The notes under the pieces were generated by a model. It made no database searches, was not told where the DNA came from, and was given only the letters and a program-made list of their open reading frames with translations. A stretch of 62,477 bases of DNA from Bacilli bacterium. Its GTDB lineage: Bacteria; Bacillota_I; Bacilli_A; RF39; UBA660. Positions 22,464 to 30,513 of this stretch are shown one piece after another. The stretch covers positions 1-62,477 of the forward strand of contig JAFRVB010000001.1 of NCBI GenBank assembly GCA_017441845.1, written 5' to 3'. A program made the position numbers and the translations under genes. Each line of letters begins with the position of its first letter. Positions within the stretch are counted from its first letter, which is position 1.

Positions 22464-23402
22464 ATGAGTAAAAAGAAACATATAGGATTAAAATTAGTAT
22501 TAGTTTTATCAATTTTTCTCTTATTAACAGGATGTACTACTCAATTAAAAAATGATAAAGGAAAAGTTGTTAAAGATCCAACTACTGGTCAAACTCTAAC
22601 AAAGAATATATTATGTCAGCCAACAGAAAAAACTTCTGTTGATTTATATAATAAGAATAAAGTAAAAGTTGATAAATTACCTAAATGTGAAGATATGAAG
22701 ATTAATTCAGGTCATTATGAAGGTTTATGGAATTCATTCTTCGTTAAACCATTAGCATTTGCTTTAATAAAAATAGGAACAGTAGTTAAGAATTATGCTA
22801 TATCATTAATTATTATTACATTGATAATAAGAATGATTGTTTTCCCATTAACATTAAATATGGCAAGACAGGCAAAAGTAATGAAAGATGCTCAACCAGA
22901 ATTAACAAAACTACAAAAGAAATATGCTGGTAAAGAACAAACACAAGAAAATATGATGAAACAAAATCAAGAAATGATGGCAATTTATAAGAAATATAAT
23001 ATTAATCCAGCTCTAGGATGTATATTTGCTTTTATTCAATTACCATTATTCATAGCCTTTTTTGAAGCTATTCAAAGAACACCAGCAATCTATGAAGACT
23101 CTTTCTTAGGAATGCATCTAGGTACAACAGCATCTGTAGGTTTAAGTAGTGCAACATTCTATTCTTATTTAATATTAGTTATATTAATAGGAGTAACAAC
23201 ATATCTATCATTCAAGATGAATCAAACAGACATGAGCACTAACCCTACAATGAAATATATGCCAATTATGATGACAGTTATGATCATCTTTATGGGATTT
23301 GTAATGCCAGCAGGTTTAGGAATCTATTGGGTTACTTCAAATATATTTACTATAGTTCAAAATGCTATAGTTGGAAGGAGCAAGAAAGATGAACGAGCAT
23401 AA
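22464..23402 (+). CDS. yidC: Membrane protein insertase YidC/SpoIIIJ
   Basis: Lipobox LTGC, IRMIVFPL, QPEL..LQKKY, GC...FIQLP, GLGIYWVTSN.F..VQ. Confidence 0.95.
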   Translation: MSKKKHIGLKLVLVLSIFLLLTGCTTQLKNDKGKVVKDPTTGQTLTKNILCQPTEKTSVDLYNKNKVKVDKLPKCEDMKINSGHYEGLWNSFFVKPLAFALIKIGTVVKNYAISLIIITLIIRMIVFPLTLNMARQAKVMKDAQPELTKLQKKYAGKEQTQENMMKQNQEMMAIYKKYNINPALGCIFAFIQLPLFIAFFEAIQRTPAIYEDSFLGMHLGTTASVGLSSATFYSYLILVILIGVTTYLSFKMNQTDMSTNPTMKYMPIMMTVMIIFMGFVMPAGLGIYWVTSNIFTIVQNAIVGRSKKDERA

Positions 23403-24027
23403 ATATACAGGCAAAACTAAAGAAGAAGCAGTTCAAGCTGCTATAGAAGATCTACAAGAATTAGAAGAAAATCTAATCATAAGAGAATCTTCAGAACAAA
23501 AAGGTGGTTTATTTAAACAAAAGAAAGTAGAAATAACCGTAATAGAAAAAAGAGATGTTAATAAATATATAAAAGATTTTATTATTTCTACAATCAAAGA
23601 GCTAGGATTTACTGCTAACGTTGAAGTAAAAGTAAAAGAAAACGTACCTAATTATACAATCTTTTCTGATAATGATTCATTACTTATTGGTAAGACTGGT
23701 AAAAACTTATCAGCACTTACATTAGTAGTAAGAGAACATATTTCAAAGGTACTAGGAAAACCATATAGATTTGTAATTGATGTTTCTGATTACAAAGAAA
23801 AGAATGATTTAAGATTAGAAAGATTAGCTAGAAAGATTGCTAGAGATGTTAAATTCTCAAAAGTAGAAGCTAAATTAGATCCAATGAATTCTTATGAGAG
23901 AAGAGTAATTCATAATGCTCTAGGTAAGAACAAATATGTTACTACAGAATCTGAAGGAGAAGAACCAAATAGATATGTAGTAATCAAACCAAAAGAGATT
24001 AAAGAAGAAAAAGAAAAAGAAGATTAA
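23389..24027 (+). CDS. jag: Jag/KhpB/EloR RNA-binding protein
   Basis: GKTKEEA (Jag_N), KH domain LIGKTGKNL.AL, R3H domain PMNSYERRVIH. ATG at 23389 follows AAGGAG. Confidence 0.94.
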   Translation: MNEHKYTGKTKEEAVQAAIEDLQELEENLIIRESSEQKGGLFKQKKVEITVIEKRDVNKYIKDFIISTIKELGFTANVEVKVKENVPNYTIFSDNDSLLIGKTGKNLSALTLVVREHISKVLGKPYRFVIDVSDYKEKNDLRLERLARKIARDVKFSKVEAKLDPMNSYERRVIHNALGKNKYVTTESEGEEPNRYVVIKPKEIKEEKEKED

Positions 24028-24045
24028 TTAACAATCTTCTTTTTT
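24017..24045 (+). terminator. Intrinsic terminator after jag
   Basis: aagaagatt-aattaac-aatcttctttttt. Confidence 0.7.
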
Positions 24046-24330
24046 ATTTATAGAAAAAAAGTACTTTAAAAAACATAAGTAAATTAAGGACAAAAACAAG
24101 GTTCTAAAAAAAGTCAAACATTTATTATAAATAAAGTGTAAAATTATGATTAAAAATTGTAAATCGAACAAAAAATATTTTCTCAAGGAAAATGTTTTTT
24201 TATAACACTTTTAGAAAAAGTAGAAAAAATTTTATAAAAAAAAATAAAAAAAGTGCTGTAAAAAACATTTAAAAAAATATCGTTTTGTAGTACGATAAAG
24301 TTGTAAGAGATACAAGAAGGAGAATAGGTT

Positions 24331-26607
24331 ATGGATAAAGATTTTTTTAATGAAATCGTAGTAGTTAAGCGTAGTGGTCAGCGAGTTAATTTCAATGACA
24401 CTAAGATAGCTATAGCGATCAAGAAAGGGTTCGATAGTGTATACGAAGACTATGACGAAAACAAAGTTAATGCCGTAAAAGAAAAAGTTGTTGAAGACAT
24501 AGAAAAAGAATATCAAGATCGTAAGACAATTGGAGTTGAAGATATTCAAGATATAATCGAAAAGAATTTAAAAAAATTACATTATGATGAAGTATACGAA
24601 TCATATAAAGGATATCGTGAGAGAAGATCAGCTTCTCGTGAAGCTTTCGTAGAAAAGCAACAACATAAATTTGTTAAAGCAATTGAATCACTTGGTTTAA
24701 AATCCGCTGCCGAAGAGAATGCCAAGAGAGAAAATGCTAACGTTGATGGAGATGGACCAATGGGTACAATGTTACACTTTGGATCAACTATCTCAAAAGA
24801 ATTTGCTAAAGCTTATTTAATGGATAATAAGTATGCTAGAGCTCATGATGAAGGAGTAATTCATATTCATGACTTAGATTTCTGGGCTATGGGTACAACA
24901 ACATGTACTCAAATAGATATCGATAAATTATTTGAACATGGTTTTTCAACAGGACATGGATATCTAAGAACACCAAATTCAATTGGTTCATATTCAGCAC
25001 TTGCTGCTATCGCAATTCAAGCTAATCAAAATGAACAACACGGTGGACAAAGTATTCCAGCCTTTGATTATTATATGGCTCCAGGAGTATTAAAAACATT
25101 CAGAAAAGAATTTAAACAAGAATTATCAGAATTATTAGATTTTGAGGGAATAAAGAATTTAGTTAATTTTGATAAGATACTTGATATTATTAATAATCTA
25201 AAAAGTATAGAATTTGATTTTAAAATCTTTAAAGATGAAATTAAAGAAAGTAAAAAAGTAGAAGAAATATTCAAAACAGCTTATGAAAATGCCATAACAA
25301 AAACAGATAGAGCAACATTCCAAGCAATGGAAGCTTTTATCCACAATCTAAATACAATGCATTCAAGAGCAGGAGCTCAAGTACCATTTTCATCAGTAAA
25401 CTTTGGTACTGATACATCTCCTGAAGGAAGAATGGTTATTAAAAATTATTTATTAGCTACTGATGAAGGATTAGGACATGGAGAAACTCCAATATTCCCA
25501 ATCTCAATCTTCAAAGTAAAAGAAGGAGTTAATTATAATAAGAAAGATCCTAGTTATGATTTATTCAGACTAGCATGTAAGGTAAGTGCTAAAAGATTAT
25601 TCCCTAATTTCTCATTCTTAGATTCAAGCTTTAATAAAGCTTTCTATGAAAAAGGAAATTTCCAAACAGAAGTAGGGTATATGGGATGTCGTACAAGAGT
25701 GCTTGCTAATGTTTGTGGACCATCAGTAACTCCAGGAAGAGGAAACTTGAGTTTTACTTCAATAAACTTACCAAGAATTGGATTAAAACATGGTATTGCT
25801 CTAGGAGAGAGAAAGAAAGCAGACATGAAAGGTTTCTATGAAGAATTAGATGAAGTTATGGAATTAGTAAAAGGACAATTACTACAAAGATTTGATTGTC
25901 AATGTTCTAAATCAATAGCTAACTTCAAATTCTTATTAGGAGCACATGTTTGGTTAAATAGTGAAAACCTGACACCAACTAGTAGAATTAGAACAGTTCT
26001 AAAACACGGAACTTTATCAATAGGATTCATAGGTTTAGCTGAAACACTAAAATCATTAATAGGTGAACACCATGGAGAAAGTGATGAAGCTCAAAAGTTA
26101 GGTTTAGAAATAGTTAAACATATGAGAGCTAAATGTGATGAATTTACTAAAGAATATAATTTAAACTTCACATGTTTAGCTACACCAGCTGAAGGTTTAT
26201 CTGGAAGATTCGTAGGTATGGATAGATCAATCTATGGAAAGATCAAAGGTATTACTGATAAAGAATACTATACAAATTCATTCCACGTACCTGTTTATTA
26301 TAAGACTTCAGTAAAACACAAATTAGAAATTGAAGGACCATATCATAGTCTAACTAACGCAGGACACATTTCATACGTTGAGTTAGATGGAGATACTGTT
26401 AATAACGTAGATGCTTTCGAGAAAGTAGTAAGAATCATGCATGATAATGATATCGGATATGGCGCAATCAACCATCCAGTAGATAGAGATCCTGTCTGTG
26501 GATTCGTTGGAGTAATTAAAGATGTATGCCCTAAATGTGGAAGAAAAAATGGAGAGGGTATATCAATGGAGAAAATAAACAGTGATGATTATTGCTGTTA
26601 TAAATAA
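24331..26607 (+). CDS. nrdD: Class III (anaerobic) ribonucleotide reductase, large catalytic chain lacking the glycyl-radical loop
   Basis: ATP cone (VVKRSG...FN..KI..AI), HIHDLD, Q.EQHGGQ, GYMGCRT, RGNLSFTSINLPR, ATPAEGL, YYTNSFH. Ends after CPKCG with no R-x-x-G-Y motif. Confidence 0.95.
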   Translation: MDKDFFNEIVVVKRSGQRVNFNDTKIAIAIKKGFDSVYEDYDENKVNAVKEKVVEDIEKEYQDRKTIGVEDIQDIIEKNLKKLHYDEVYESYKGYRERRSASREAFVEKQQHKFVKAIESLGLKSAAEENAKRENANVDGDGPMGTMLHFGSTISKEFAKAYLMDNKYARAHDEGVIHIHDLDFWAMGTTTCTQIDIDKLFEHGFSTGHGYLRTPNSIGSYSALAAIAIQANQNEQHGGQSIPAFDYYMAPGVLKTFRKEFKQELSELLDFEGIKNLVNFDKILDIINNLKSIEFDFKIFKDEIKESKKVEEIFKTAYENAITKTDRATFQAMEAFIHNLNTMHSRAGAQVPFSSVNFGTDTSPEGRMVIKNYLLATDEGLGHGETPIFPISIFKVKEGVNYNKKDPSYDLFRLACKVSAKRLFPNFSFLDSSFNKAFYEKGNFQTEVGYMGCRTRVLANVCGPSVTPGRGNLSFTSINLPRIGLKHGIALGERKKADMKGFYEELDEVMELVKGQLLQRFDCQCSKSIANFKFLLGAHVWLNSENLTPTSRIRTVLKHGTLSIGFIGLAETLKSLIGEHHGESDEAQKLGLEIVKHMRAKCDEFTKEYNLNFTCLATPAEGLSGRFVGMDRSIYGKIKGITDKEYYTNSFHVPVYYKTSVKHKLEIEGPYHSLTNAGHISYVELDGDTVNNVDAFEKVVRIMHDNDIGYGAINHPVDRDPVCGFVGVIKDVCPKCGRKNGEGISMEKINSDDYCCYK

Positions 26608-26636
26608 AAAAGATTTAAGGAAGAGAGGTAAATAAA

Positions 26637-26792
26637 ATGGAAAGAGAAAATAAGAGAACTAAAGTTGTAGGAGAAGGAGTAGAATTCGAAAGAATCAGAA
26701 GAATTACAGGATATTTAGTAGGAACTTTAGATAGATTCAATAATGCTAAGAAAGCAGAAGTTAACGATAGAGTAAAACATGCCACAAAGTAA
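26637..26792 (+). CDS. Stand-alone NrdD glycyl-radical domain peptide (51 aa, not in ORF track)
   Basis: MERENKRTKVVGEGVEFERIRRITGYLVGTLDRFNNAKKAEVNDRVKHATK has its own GAGAGGT RBS. It contains the NrdD C-terminal signature RITGYL...FN.AK.AEV.DRVKH. Confidence 0.92.
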   Translation: MERENKRTKVVGEGVEFERIRRITGYLVGTLDRFNNAKKAEVNDRVKHATK

Positions 26793-27348
26793 GCATACTA
26801 TCAGATTGGCTGCCGACTTGCAATCAGATAGTATCGTAGATGGACCTGGTTTAAGAACAGTAATTTGGACTCAGGGTTGCTCTCATCACTGCCGAGGATG
26901 CCAAAATCCCCAAACTTGGGATTTTGAAGGAGGGGGAGAAGTACCCATTGATATGGTACTTGAAGCCATCGATGAATTAGAATATCAAGATGGTATAACC
27001 TTCAGTGGAGGAGATCCAATGTTTCAACCAGAAGCCTGTACTGAAATAGCTAAATATTGTAAAGAAAAAGGTTATAATATTTGGGTATATACAGGATATA
27101 CTTATGAAGAGTTAATTAAAATGTCTAAAGAAAAACCAATATATAAGAAATTTTTATCTTATATAGATGTATTAGTAGATGGAAAATTTGTCTTAAAGAA
27201 AAAAGATTTAAATACCTTATTTAGAGGATCTACTAATCAGAGACTTATAGACATGCCAAAGACGTTATCTTCAGATGAAATAGTATTATTTGATGAATCT
27301 GAGTACTTGCAAGAAGATAAATTTAAAAGAGAAAAAACATACGTATAA
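26779..27348 (+). CDS. nrdG: Anaerobic RNR activating radical-SAM enzyme
   Basis: DSIVDGPGLR..IWTQGCSHHCRGCQNP.TW (CxxxCxxC), GITFSGGDP, DVLVDG.F, FRGS.NQR. Confidence 0.96.
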   Translation: MPQSKHTIRLAADLQSDSIVDGPGLRTVIWTQGCSHHCRGCQNPQTWDFEGGGEVPIDMVLEAIDELEYQDGITFSGGDPMFQPEACTEIAKYCKEKGYNIWVYTGYTYEELIKMSKEKPIYKKFLSYIDVLVDGKFVLKKKDLNTLFRGSTNQRLIDMPKTLSSDEIVLFDESEYLQEDKFKREKTYV

Positions 27349-27370
27349 GGGTATCGCATGATACTCTTTT
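27347..27370 (+). terminator. Weak terminator between nrdG and FNT gene
   Basis: aagggtatc-gcat-gatactctttt. Confidence 0.5.
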
Positions 27371-27388
27371 AAAGTTAAGAGGTGTATT

Positions 27389-28000
27389 ATGACAAGATAT
27401 ATAGAATTAATAAATAAGAGTGTAGGGGCTGCAATTCTAATAGGTTTAGGAGATTATGCACTATTAAAATTAGGCAATCCACTAGGACCAGTATTATTTA
27501 CTCTAGGATTATTAGGAGTATGTTACATGGGACAAAATCTATTCACAGGTAAATGTGGATTCTTAATAGAAGACAAGATTAAAGGATTAGATCTATTTCT
27601 AATTTTAATAGTTAATCTAATCGCAGGTTATATTTTAGGATTATTATTTTCAATCACAGATAAAGAAGTCTTAACAAACGCAGTAGCAAGAGTAGCTACT
27701 TGGGATTTCACTTTTGCTTACTTCATTAAAGCCGTTATGTGTGGAGTAATCATGTATATAGCGGTACTTATGTATAGAAAAGGAACACCACTAGGTATTA
27801 TCTTTGGTATTCCATTATTCATTTTCTGTGGATTTCAACATAGCATTGCTAACATCATCACATTAGGTGCCGGACAAACTATTCATATAGCTATTATTCT
27901 TGCTATAATTGGTAATTTTGTAGGTTCATTACTAATGTGGTATTTCTCAAAAGATATTCCTGAAAAAAAGATAAGAAAAAGAAGAAAAAAGATGTTATAA
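27389..28000 (+). CDS. Formate/nitrite transporter (FNT) family channel
   Basis: Hydrophobic throughout, with LFTG, KAVMCG, FIFCGFQHSIAN and GNFVG signatures. Confidence 0.85.
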   Translation: MTRYIELINKSVGAAILIGLGDYALLKLGNPLGPVLFTLGLLGVCYMGQNLFTGKCGFLIEDKIKGLDLFLILIVNLIAGYILGLLFSITDKEVLTNAVARVATWDFTFAYFIKAVMCGVIMYIAVLMYRKGTPLGIIFGIPLFIFCGFQHSIANIITLGAGQTIHIAIILAIIGNFVGSLLMWYFSKDIPEKKIRKRRKKML

Positions 28001-28018
28001 TAAACTTAAGGTGATGAT

Positions 28019-28492
28019 ATGAAAAGAAAAATATTTATTGGATTTCTAGTTGTACTAGCAATCGCACTTATAGTTTTTATAATATTTTTATTAACAAGAC
28101 CAGAAGAAATGAAAGATATCAAATATTATGAAAAACAAACACATCAATACTATGATAATAAAGGTTTTGCTGATAATACTTTCTTAATTGATTCAGAAAA
28201 AGAATACAACATCTTTAAAAAACAGTATGATACCCCAATAGATGAAAAAGTTAATTTTGAAAAAGACCTATTATTTATTCAAGTTAAACCAGCTTCATCA
28301 GGAAGTATCATGATGAAATTAAAGAAAGTAGTAATCAAAAAAGATCAAATTGTATTCCAAATTAAAGAAAAAACACCTAAGAAAGTAACAGATGATATAG
28401 CTTTCTGGTACTTTGTTGCTGTTATCCCAAGAGATAAGGCAGCACAATATGATTTATCTAATTGGCATAAAATTTCAAAAGTAAAAAAATAA
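28019..28492 (+). CDS. Membrane-anchored protein, PrcB C-terminal-like domain
   Basis: N-terminal TM helix. The segment P.SSGSI..KL..V...P...TD.IA.WYFV..IP resembles PrcB_C. Confidence 0.45.
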   Translation: MKRKIFIGFLVVLAIALIVFIIFLLTRPEEMKDIKYYEKQTHQYYDNKGFADNTFLIDSEKEYNIFKKQYDTPIDEKVNFEKDLLFIQVKPASSGSIMMKLKKVVIKKDQIVFQIKEKTPKKVTDDIAFWYFVAVIPRDKAAQYDLSNWHKISKVKK

Positions 28493-28516
28493 GAAATCTT
28501 TAAAGATTTCTTTTTT
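28491..28516 (+). terminator. Intrinsic terminator
   Basis: aagaaatct-ttaa-agatttctttttt. Confidence 0.7.
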
Positions 28517-28563
28517 ATTTAAAAAAAGATAGTATAATAAGATTATAGGTAAGGAGGATAATT

Positions 28564-30513
28564 ATGAAGAAAATAAGCATAATACTTAGTCTGATTGTTA
28601 TTATAGCTTTAATAATTGTAGGAATATGTATCTATGATAATCAAGAAGTAAAAACAATTAAAAGTGAAAAAGAATTAACTAGAATTCTAAATAATAATGA
28701 AAAAGACCAAATACCATTAGGAATAAGACTATTAACAATGCCTTTCAGTATAATGTTAGGAAATTATCAACCTGTATATAATGAATGGCAAACAATAGAT
28801 TCTTATACTACAACTAAATCAAATGACGCAACAAACGAAGGAAGCACAAGAGATTATTCAAAAACAAATATCCAAGTAGAAGGAGTAGATGAAGCAGACA
28901 TCATCAAAACAGATGGAGACTATATTTATTCAATATCTGGTAATAATGTCATAATCACAAACGCTAAAGATCCAAAAGACACAAAAATAGAAACAAAGAT
29001 CAACGGTGAAAAGAATGTCCCAACAGACTTATTGCTATATAAAGATAAATTAGTAGTAATTTCTACAGAAGTAACAAACACAAGAAGCGGAGACAGATAT
29101 TCTTGGTATAGACCACAAGATAGAAATACAGTTGTTACTATTTATGATGTTAAAGATAAACAAAAACCTAAAGTAGAGAAGAAATTTAAATTAAAAGAAG
29201 AATATAATACTACAAGATGTATAGATGGAAACTTATATATATTTGCTTCAGGATACTTAAGAAAGAAAGATAATAAAGTAGATAGAACTTATAGAGAAGA
29301 TAATAAAACAAAAGAAATAGAACTAAGTAATATTAAATATTTAAAAAATAAAAAACAAAACACTCAAACATTAATAGCTGAAGTAGATTTAAATAATATT
29401 AAAGATATTAAATTAAGTTCTTATCTAATTGATATAACTAATTCATATGTATCTAAAGATAATATCTATTTATTAGATGAAAAATATTCTTCAGAAAAAC
29501 CATCATTAAAAGATTTATTTGGTTTTGCTGGAGTATTTGGATATTTCAAAAACGTATATAATGATAATAGTGAAAAAACAACTATCTATAAATTTAATAT
29601 AGATAAAAAGAAAGGTGTTAAATACCAAACATCTAATAGAGTAGAAGGAACTATTATTAATCAATATTCCTTAGATGAAAAAGATAATAATTTAAGAATA
29701 GCTTTAGAAACAGATGATGGCTCAAATGTAACAGTATTAGATAAAAACTTAAAAGTAAGAGGAAAAACAGAAAATGTTGCTGAAGGAGAAAACATGTATG
29801 CTTCTAGATTTATGGGAGATAAAGCTTATTTAGTAACATATCAAAATACAGATCCATTATTTGTAATAGATTTACAAGATCCAGACAACCCAGAAGTTCT
29901 AGGAGAATTAAAAATACCAGGTTATAGTACTTATCTACATCCATATGATGAAAATCATTTAATTGGCATTGGTATGGATACAAGAGAAAGAGTATATAGA
30001 GATATAAATGGTAGAGTAACATCTACTTGGACTGAAACAGTTGGAATGAAGATGTCTCTATTCGATGTAACTGATGTAGAGAATCCAGTAGAGATAGATC
30101 ATACAACTATTGGAGACAGAAGAACAGTATCCGCAATATTAACTAATCCAAAAGCATTATTATTCTCAAAAGAAAAAGAATTAATTGCGATACCAGTAAA
30201 TAATTATAATAAAGATTTCTCAGTAAGAGATGCTGATGAATATGATGAAGAAATAGATAATTTTACTGATAAAAAAGATTATGTATCAGAAGGATACTTA
30301 GTATATAAAGTTAACTTAGATGGGTTCAAACTAAAAGGATCAATAACTCATGAAAAGAAAACAAGTAATTATTTCTATTATTACAACACTAAGTTATTAA
30401 GAGGTCTTTATATAGATGATAATCTATATACAGTTTCAGAAAGTAAGATTAAAGTAAATGATTTAAAAACTTTAAAAGAAATAAAATCTATAGATGTGGA
30501 AGGAGAAAAATAA
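28564..30513 (+). CDS. Secreted beta-propeller domain protein
   Basis: Signal/TM segment, DYS.TNIQVEGVDEADIIKTDG.YIY, RFMGDKAYLVTY.NTDPLFVIDL, GELKIPGYSTYLHP. Confidence 0.88.
   Translation: MKKISIILSLIVIIALIIVGICIYDNQEVKTIKSEKELTRILNNNEKDQIPLGIRLLTMPFSIMLGNYQPVYNEWQTIDSYTTTKSNDATNEGSTRDYSKTNIQVEGVDEADIIKTDGDYIYSISGNNVIITNAKDPKDTKIETKINGEKNVPTDLLLYKDKLVVISTEVTNTRSGDRYSWYRPQDRNTVVTIYDVKDKQKPKVEKKFKLKEEYNTTRCIDGNLYIFASGYLRKKDNKVDRTYREDNKTKEIELSNIKYLKNKKQNTQTLIAEVDLNNIKDIKLSSYLIDITNSYVSKDNIYLLDEKYSSEKPSLKDLFGFAGVFGYFKNVYNDNSEKTTIYKFNIDKKKGVKYQTSNRVEGTIINQYSLDEKDNNLRIALETDDGSNVTVLDKNLKVRGKTENVAEGENMYASRFMGDKAYLVTYQNTDPLFVIDLQDPDNPEVLGELKIPGYSTYLHPYDENHLIGIGMDTRERVYRDINGRVTSTWTETVGMKMSLFDVTDVENPVEIDHTTIGDRRTVSAILTNPKALLFSKEKELIAIPVNNYNKDFSVRDADEYDEEIDNFTDKKDYVSEGYLVYKVNLDGFKLKGSITHEKKTSNYFYYYNTKLLRGLYIDDNLYTVSESKIKVNDLKTLKEIKSIDVEGEK

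Follow-up and report, generated by a model that had tools for sequence, protein, structure and literature searches.

The 62,477-nucleotide stretch of DNA from a Bacilli bacterium that is described here (the window; contig JAFRVB010000001.1 of assembly GCA_017441845.1) carries an operon for a class III ribonucleotide reductase (RNR) in which the catalytic subunit, NrdD, is encoded in two pieces. A large open reading frame (ORF) specifies a chain that is devoid of the glycyl-radical loop, a small ORF directly downstream of it specifies a 51-residue peptide that carries this loop, and the gene of the activase NrdG follows. The operon very probably encodes a working enzyme that is composed of two separately translated chains. 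The parts of the locus are as follows:

24331-26607, + strand: nrdD large chain, 758 residues, class III RNR catalytic subunit without the glycyl-radical loop (PF13597, NF005497)
24355-24630, + strand: ATP-cone, large-chain residues 9-100 (PF03477, 50.6 bits, E 3e-13)
25687-25689, + strand: codon of Cys453 in the YMGCR finger loop, the presumed thiyl-radical cysteine, located from the sequence
26473-26541, + strand: zinc-ribbon region, residues 715-737, with three cysteines (C723, C733 and C736), the usual number being four
26542-26607, + strand: C-terminal tail of the large chain, residues 738-758, and stop codon; it holds a copy of the linker segment, GEGISMEKI, followed by a terminal Cys-Cys
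26608-26636, + strand: spacer of 29 nucleotides (nt), with a Shine-Dalgarno-like GAGAGGT at 26623-26629 and a TAA at 26616-26618 in the frame of the small ORF
26637-26792, + strand: small ORF, glycyl-radical peptide, 51 residues, with Gly25 (codon 26709-26711) in RRITGY
26779-27348, + strand: nrdG, radical S-adenosylmethionine activase, 189 residues (TIGR02491, 154.6 bits against a cut-off of 126.1; PF13353, 140 bits)

A preliminary description of this DNA, made from its letters alone, had placed nrdD, the 51-residue ORF, nrdG, the stop codons and the ribosome-binding site at these positions, and all of them match the ORF list and the sequence. The nrdD frame ends at the TAA at 26605-26607. 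As the small ORF lies in a different frame and a further TAA stands between the two, a single insertion or deletion cannot fuse them, which is what the preliminary description had stated. The GAGAGGT ends 7 nt 5' of the ATG of the small ORF, and at its other end this ORF shares 14 nt with nrdG. In the large chain, the ATP cone and the YMGCR loop are retained and an R-x-x-G-Y motif is missing; both profiles and sequence confirm this early observation. The motif is present on the peptide. The role of Cys453 as the thiyl-radical residue is presumed from established knowledge of class III RNRs.

The two ORFs divide the profiles of NrdD between them. In the case of PF13597, positions 1-531 of 562 fall on the large chain (608.5 bits) and positions 532-562 on the peptide (33.2 bits; cut-off 26.2). 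In the case of NF005497, the large chain accounts for positions 4-715 of 746 (1004.3 bits; cut-off 764) and the peptide for positions 710-745. The closest solved NrdD structure, PDB entry 8p23 (743 residues), aligns to the large chain over its residues 8-705 with an E-value of 1e-175, and its last 38 residues have no counterpart on this chain. Asp720 of the zinc ribbon faces the first cysteine of the C-x-x-C of 8p23. Fused members of the family have the same pattern, and the zinc-ribbon columns are invariant in the large-chain alignment. In public databases, homologous 51-residue ORFs are called either 'anaerobic ribonucleoside-triphosphate reductase' or 'hypothetical protein'.

The junction between the two ORFs is crossed without insertions or deletions by assembled contigs of three independent studies, which take the place here of the raw reads that the preliminary description had in mind. 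A contig from goat gut (X8) spans 26448-26695 with no differences, and one from a fermentation metagenome (X5) spans 26557-26726 with a single difference. A third contig, from an RNA library (X16), spans 26440-27031, which comprises the end of nrdD, the small ORF and the start of nrdG, with 52 substitutions and no gaps; all eight of its differences listed within the small ORF are at third codon positions. Sequencing run X10 has zero depth over 26572-26664 and is hence uninformative on the junction. A pseudogene or an assembly error might be suspected from the unusual layout and from a named relative (L087) in which the large ORF has a further break, but the independent contigs agree at the junction, both parts are under purifying selection and in three relatives no RNR other than the split one was found, so that an artefact is effectively excluded.

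The split is not unique to this assembly and recurs both in the family to which the window's organism belongs and in named genomes. Of 8000 proteins scored in a search limited to lengths of 28-90 residues, 7991 are similar to the peptide; the 120 listed are 49-66 residues long, about 95 of them having exactly 51 residues, and some of them sit on contigs of more than 100 kb. The window's own family comprises uncultured Bacilli whose genomes measure roughly 0.4-1.7 Mb, and of 401 genomes sampled from it, 203 have a match to the peptide. Among the 150 family matches listed, 125 lie in frames of 49-81 residues, 23 in frames of 783-818 residues, which are fused NrdD proteins, and two at contig ends; there are 56 further matches beyond these 150. 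In each of the 40 split loci of the family that were examined, the radical glycine is missing from the large chain and is found on a separate peptide instead. The enzyme encoded in the window must therefore be bipartite.

Both chains are well conserved at the residues on which catalysis would depend. Gly25 and the surrounding RIRRITGYL are invariant in all 21 aligned peptides, and M451, G452, C453 and R454 are invariant in all 21 aligned large chains. The N-terminus of the peptide is variable and rich in Lys and Glu. Over the 38 codons of the peptide core in 40 sequences, the ratio of nonsynonymous to synonymous polymorphism (pN/pS) is 0.19. The median ratio of nonsynonymous to synonymous substitution rates (dN/dS) is 0.097, as calculated from the 687 of 780 pairs that have a finite dS, the other 93 being saturated. 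Variability at the first, second and third codon positions of the peptide is 0.09, 0.07 and 0.32, the third position thus being three to four times more variable than the other two. These observations support the view that the split is conserved and that both halves are kept by selection.

The 40 family loci also bear on how the small ORF is translated. The distance from the stop of the large chain to the ATG of the small ORF varies between 1 and 39 nt, and the relative frame is 0, +1 and +2 in 12, 13 and 15 loci, respectively. Translational recoding, by a frameshift, a hop or readthrough, could join the two ORFs into one fused NrdD, and the short gap (29 nt in the window) and the common frame of the ORFs in 12 loci would be in its favor. 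However, the three frames are similarly frequent, the gaps differ in length, and every one of the 40 small ORFs has its own ATG with a Shine-Dalgarno-like site. In the window, a TAA in frame with the small ORF separates the ORFs, and a search of 23000-29000 against Rfam gave no RNA family match at E <=0.1. Because all frames and varied gaps occur across the 40 loci, a conserved frameshift or hop is excluded, and recoding of any kind is very improbable. The same features argue for an independent, probably coupled, initiation at the small ORF.

Outside the family, 598 named GTDB loci were confirmed, and the best 80 of them form a sample that is biased to peptide-like sequences. It consists of 62 split loci, 3 fused loci, 14 free-standing genes and one match at a contig edge. 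The split loci are labelled as Bacillota (45), Pseudomonadota (5), Fibrobacterota (4), Bacteroidota (3), Thermodesulfobacteriota (2), Mycoplasmatota (1) and Spirochaetota (1), with one unlabelled, where the labels of metagenome-assembled genomes are possibly wrong. Two split carriers, Succinivibrio dextrinosolvens DSM 3072 and Bilophila wadsworthia ATCC 49260, are cultured. The large-chain tail is longer outside the window's family, and it is conserved there. Two adjacent ORFs thus jointly cover one catalytic subunit in 40 family loci and 62 named loci. The preliminary description had expected similar small ORFs in other gut Firmicutes; the protein, family and named-genome searches find them far outside this group, and the mapping of split against fused genes by peptide search finds the split widespread in the family and beyond it.

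The complex of the large chain and the peptide was modelled by ESMFold2 with alignments A1 and A2. The score of the complex is 0.71, and that of the best control is 0.01; in the benchmark of this score, 58 of 80 solved complexes and 2 of 110 mismatched pairs attained this mark. At least 93% of contacts are common to the model runs, and the predicted local distance difference test value (pLDDT) of the partner is at least 73. In the model, peptide residues 9-51 contact the barrel, including finger-loop residues 452-454. The peptide touches residues 738-749 in the tail of the large chain, where its residues 13-17 are paired with residues 740-743, and peptide residues 1-8 lie outside the confident contacts. 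Docking of the two chains, for which such modelling had been suggested at the outset, is supported by these results.

Combining the sequence and the model, it is possible to propose how such an enzyme would operate. The ATP cone, the zinc ribbon and the catalytic barrel in which Cys453 resides would come from the large chain, and Gly25 from the peptide. NrdG together with S-adenosylmethionine would take a hydrogen atom from Gly25, on either the free or the docked peptide. The core of the peptide (residues 9-51) would enter the barrel and bring Gly25 beside Cys453, as in fused NrdD. The peptide might be held in part by strand pairing between its GEGVEF segment and the copy of this segment retained in the large-chain tail. 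Nucleotide reduction would then proceed as in ordinary NrdD.

The RNR content of related genomes suggests that the split gene is in use. No class I or class II RNR (PF02867) was found in five split-bearing genomes or in five other genomes of the family; the control search was positive in 12 of 14 known genomes. In three relatives that are 94-98% complete (G013, G014 and G024), the split nrdD is the sole RNR found and should therefore be the working enzyme.

Two further kinds of NrdD-like frames were seen in the course of this survey. In G024, a 260-residue frame just 5' of the split nrdD (contig 1, 99892-100407) has a partial match to the NRDD profile, covering positions 31-191. At loci L082 and L083 (G002 contig 3 and G011 contig 1), a frame of about 799 residues matches the whole NRDD profile and has an extra C-terminal stretch with C-P-N-C, which looks like a glutaredoxin or NrdH-type domain.

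Several points weigh against a working two-chain enzyme at this locus. The support for it is computational. The docking score may reflect likeness to known structures, because fused NrdD structures have already been solved. The RNA-library contig comes from a 91%-identical relative and is possibly derived from DNA. The argument from the sole RNR presumes that organisms with such small genomes make their own deoxyribonucleoside triphosphates (dNTPs). The two-chain reading does not account for the tail of the large chain and the terminal cysteine pairs. Furthermore, the window assembly (G000), which is 67.5% complete, encodes a second NrdD, complete and fused, that belongs to the PRK09263 (E. 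coli-like) type (884 bits; locus L080, contig 4, 71895-73724, - strand). The preliminary description had called the RNR obligately bipartite, and this holds for the enzyme as encoded; the organism, however, does not depend on the split enzyme alone. With a fused NrdD on another contig, the split enzyme is not the only RNR of this organism and need not be essential. The fused NrdD is of another subtype and its glycine-loop sequence is unlike that of the window peptide.

With these points taken into account, it remains highly probable that the operon encodes a working class III RNR of two separately translated chains. The split, its conservation, the translation starts, the selection and the standing of the split gene as sole RNR in some relatives are computed, and from them and the model we infer the radical, the docking, the activity and the stoichiometry of the complex.

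Glycine loops of the NrdD type are also found as free-standing genes, all of them in genomes other than that of the window. A class-level search gave unlinked matches in frames of 92-114 residues in 14 genomes of four other families, and in 13 of these genomes that search also matched a fused NrdD. The free-standing protein (about 90 residues; L167-L180, from other Bacilli families) consists of an N-terminal domain and a NrdD-type glycine loop that is 78% identical to the window peptide. Its model has a mean pLDDT of 79, the N-terminal domain being near 90. For this domain, no match was found in Pfam or NCBIfam, likeness to NrdD was not significant (E 0.14), and no PDB fold was found at E <=0.001. 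In a library clustered at 50% identity, 318 clusters match the free-standing protein at E <=1e-10, and the best 150 of them are all 56-247 residues long.

The neighbors of these genes are of several kinds. In six loci of one family, the free-standing gene is directly downstream of a desulfoferrodoxin gene, as identified by a profile scan in L173 (PF01880, E 7.8e-23) and by sequence likeness in the other five. A short free copy (L137) is positioned between the genes of a Crp/Fnr-type regulator and a rubrerythrin. Other short copies occur in the setting of prophages or mobile elements and adjoin a phage terminase, integrases, a C-5 methylase and a TraG-like gene (L124, L148, L181-L185, L136, L146, L163). 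B. wadsworthia ATCC 49260 has five unlinked peptide genes (L181-L185) besides one split-operon copy, and S. dextrinosolvens has one of each. These findings, which concern gene content, show that glycine loops of the NrdD type circulate as genes in their own right, some of which sit in an oxidative-stress context. A search of a phage collection gave matches on five unannotated 'Bacteriophage sp.' contigs; the one that was opened (H3) carries an ordinary fused NrdD on bacterial-looking DNA and was set aside.

The two-chain reading can be extended by analogy. The peptide might be a consumable radical module, where cleavage by O2 at Gly25 would cost the cell only a 51-residue peptide, which would dissociate, and a fresh copy would re-arm the intact large chain; the preliminary description had offered this sacrifice of a cheap peptide as the rationale of the split. 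This would agree with the unlinked glycyl-radical proteins in NrdD-bearing genomes, some of which are encoded beside desulfoferrodoxin or rubrerythrin genes, and with the extra peptide genes that split carriers often have. It would also agree with two parallels to YfiD, as described in PMC13450708: a strand overlapping one that is kept in the parent and a variable N-terminal stretch. The window genome, however, has a single match to the peptide and no extra copy, and the six loci linked to superoxide reductase are close kin and not independent of each other. The pattern of changes between split and fused forms described below (nine changes, with one clade rejected at a p-AU of 5e-6) suits near-neutrality equally well. 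A consumable module is a tentative proposal, plausible but less probable than not.

The origin of the split can be read from the linker that precedes the glycine loop. In the 13 fused family members examined, which have no tail and are otherwise alike, the zinc ribbon is followed by a short linker and then by FERIRRITGY. The split forms have two copies of this linker, one in the tail of the large chain and the other where the conserved core of the peptide begins. In the window, GEGISMEKI of the tail aligns in register to GEGVEFERI of the peptide. Over the 67 of 99 tail-peptide pairs that could be placed by pattern, this register has a mean identity of 0.41 and a similarity of 0.65, the corresponding values of all other registers being 0.17 and 0.31 at the highest. 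Because the linker segment is present in both the tail and the peptide in one register, the probable origin of the split architecture is a short tandem duplication spanning the linker, with a stop and a new start placed after it.

The two forms interleave in a 60-row tree of NrdD from the family, which has seven changes of state, at least two of them forced by well-supported branches. A single split clade is not rejected in a 55-row family set (p-value of the approximately unbiased test, p-AU, 0.178). A larger tree of 122 rows (104 split and 18 fused) has 9-11 changes, and here a single split clade is rejected with a p-AU of 5e-6, under the LG+G4 model with no mixture and for a group that was defined after the earlier trees had been seen. 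This set leaves out 16 of 83 candidate named loci, which have no 400-residue core, and the long-branch rows L080, L017, L016, L014 and L015 were dropped in both tests. The trees suggest that the split/fused state has switched repeatedly or that the 3' end recombines. Repeated switching fits near-equivalence of the two forms as well as an adaptive advantage.

It is possible that the fission was neutral. The duplication would have created a stop and a restart in nrdD, the loop would dock anyway, and the split would persist or revert without selective meaning. The shared register of the tail and the peptide, the repeated switches on the NrdD tree and the tailless fused relatives can all be understood in this way. 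However, the tail itself is conserved, as is its longer version outside the window's family, and the records in which the split occurs bear the labels of seven phyla. In addition, 24 of the 40 split loci have a terminal cysteine pair (CC, CxC or CxxC) on the large chain, as does the window (within 26590-26604), and 6 have it on the peptide; one tail or the other carries it in 29 loci, both in one, and it is absent from the 13 fused members. Neutral fission is a serious contender, with a probability that falls somewhat short of even. It concerns the selective meaning of the split and would leave an enzyme of two docked chains in place.

One more gene lies directly 3' of nrdG:

27389-28000, + strand: formate/nitrite transporter family gene (PF01226, 57.7 bits, E 1.5e-15)

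As formate is the usual reductant of class III RNRs, the transporter gene may belong to the operon through this supposed link. No terminator-like site was found on the + strand within the nrdD-peptide-nrdG operon, and a promoter scan gave 20 sites, with 29 expected, and so is of no help here.

Judged by sequence and model, the window peptide resembles GrcA (YfiD) of E. coli and Y06I of phage T4. Each of these is a small separate protein with a radical glycine, which is activated by the activase of the parent enzyme and completes the site of the parent. The strand retained by the parent of YfiD can be compared to the duplicated segment common to the window tail and peptide, and both small proteins have a variable N-terminus. 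Unlike GrcA, which has 127 residues, the window peptide has 51, lies inside the nrdD-nrdG operon and is homologous to NrdD, with a match to PF13597 and none to PF01228 at E <=0.1. It would also be an obligatory part and not a repair part, because its partner large chain never had a glycine loop of its own. With the canonical fused NrdD (8p23 from Prevotella copri and 1h78 from phage T4), the split enzyme has in common the ATP cone, the barrel, the finger cysteine, a zinc-ribbon region and NrdG. It differs from them in that the last 38 or so residues, including the glycine loop, are on another chain, and by its extra tail of about 20 residues and three-Cys zinc ribbon.

Other RNRs are encoded in pieces as well. 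The class I NrdA of Aeromonas phage Aeh1 is encoded by two working ORFs, split by insertion of a homing endonuclease gene. Unlike in the window, the radical source is not separated there. The class II enzyme NrdJa/NrdJb of Pseudomonas aeruginosa likewise has two adjacent genes for one catalytic subunit, the products of which must assemble, according to PMC9669993. It differs from the window in being cobalamin-dependent, and its small part has no protein radical and is a folded zinc-finger/IscU-like turnover domain. In PMC13450708 and PMC8683613 (of 2026 and 2021, respectively), YfiD and Y06I, both serving pyruvate formate-lyase (PFL), are the only validated spare parts, and the case of other glycyl radical enzymes is left open; YfiD is described there as having a disordered N-terminus and a strand overlapping one that cleaved PFL retains. 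In the literature searched, which lacks most subscription journals, no description of a class III RNR in two pieces came up; supplementary tables of RNR families might list split NrdD proteins. The literature searched likewise gave no biochemical characterization of such a peptide, in line with the preliminary description.

The split also has consequences for annotation and phylogenomics. Length filters lose the peptide, and the large chain then passes as a normal NrdD. One large RNR phylogeny discarded sequences of fewer than 400 residues (PMC9531940). Such a filter would hide the peptide, since all shorter sequences are removed.

Glycyl radical enzymes are generally described with the radical glycine in cis. 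If functional, the enzyme of the window, the radical of which is on a separate 51-residue peptide, would be the first one of this kind that obligately consists of two chains. It would provide a natural system in which to study the action of an activase on a free glycine-loop substrate, the docking of the loop and the re-arming of an O2-damaged RNR. This is directly testable, as S. dextrinosolvens DSM 3072 and B. wadsworthia ATCC 49260 are in culture. In a broader and more speculative sense, class III RNRs might own exchangeable glycyl-radical modules, which would exist as an operon-encoded chain, as an unlinked mini-protein of about 90 residues encoded beside superoxide reductase genes, and as copies of 50-80 residues, one of them next to a rubrerythrin gene and others in prophages and mobile elements; at present this is possible rather than probable. 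If true, a spent peptide would leave after O2 or other radical damage, and a fresh one, activated by NrdG, would re-arm the large chain. Phages may then bring copies of the module to keep the dNTP synthesis of the host going. This would also answer whether spare parts exist for glycyl radical enzymes beyond pyruvate formate-lyase.

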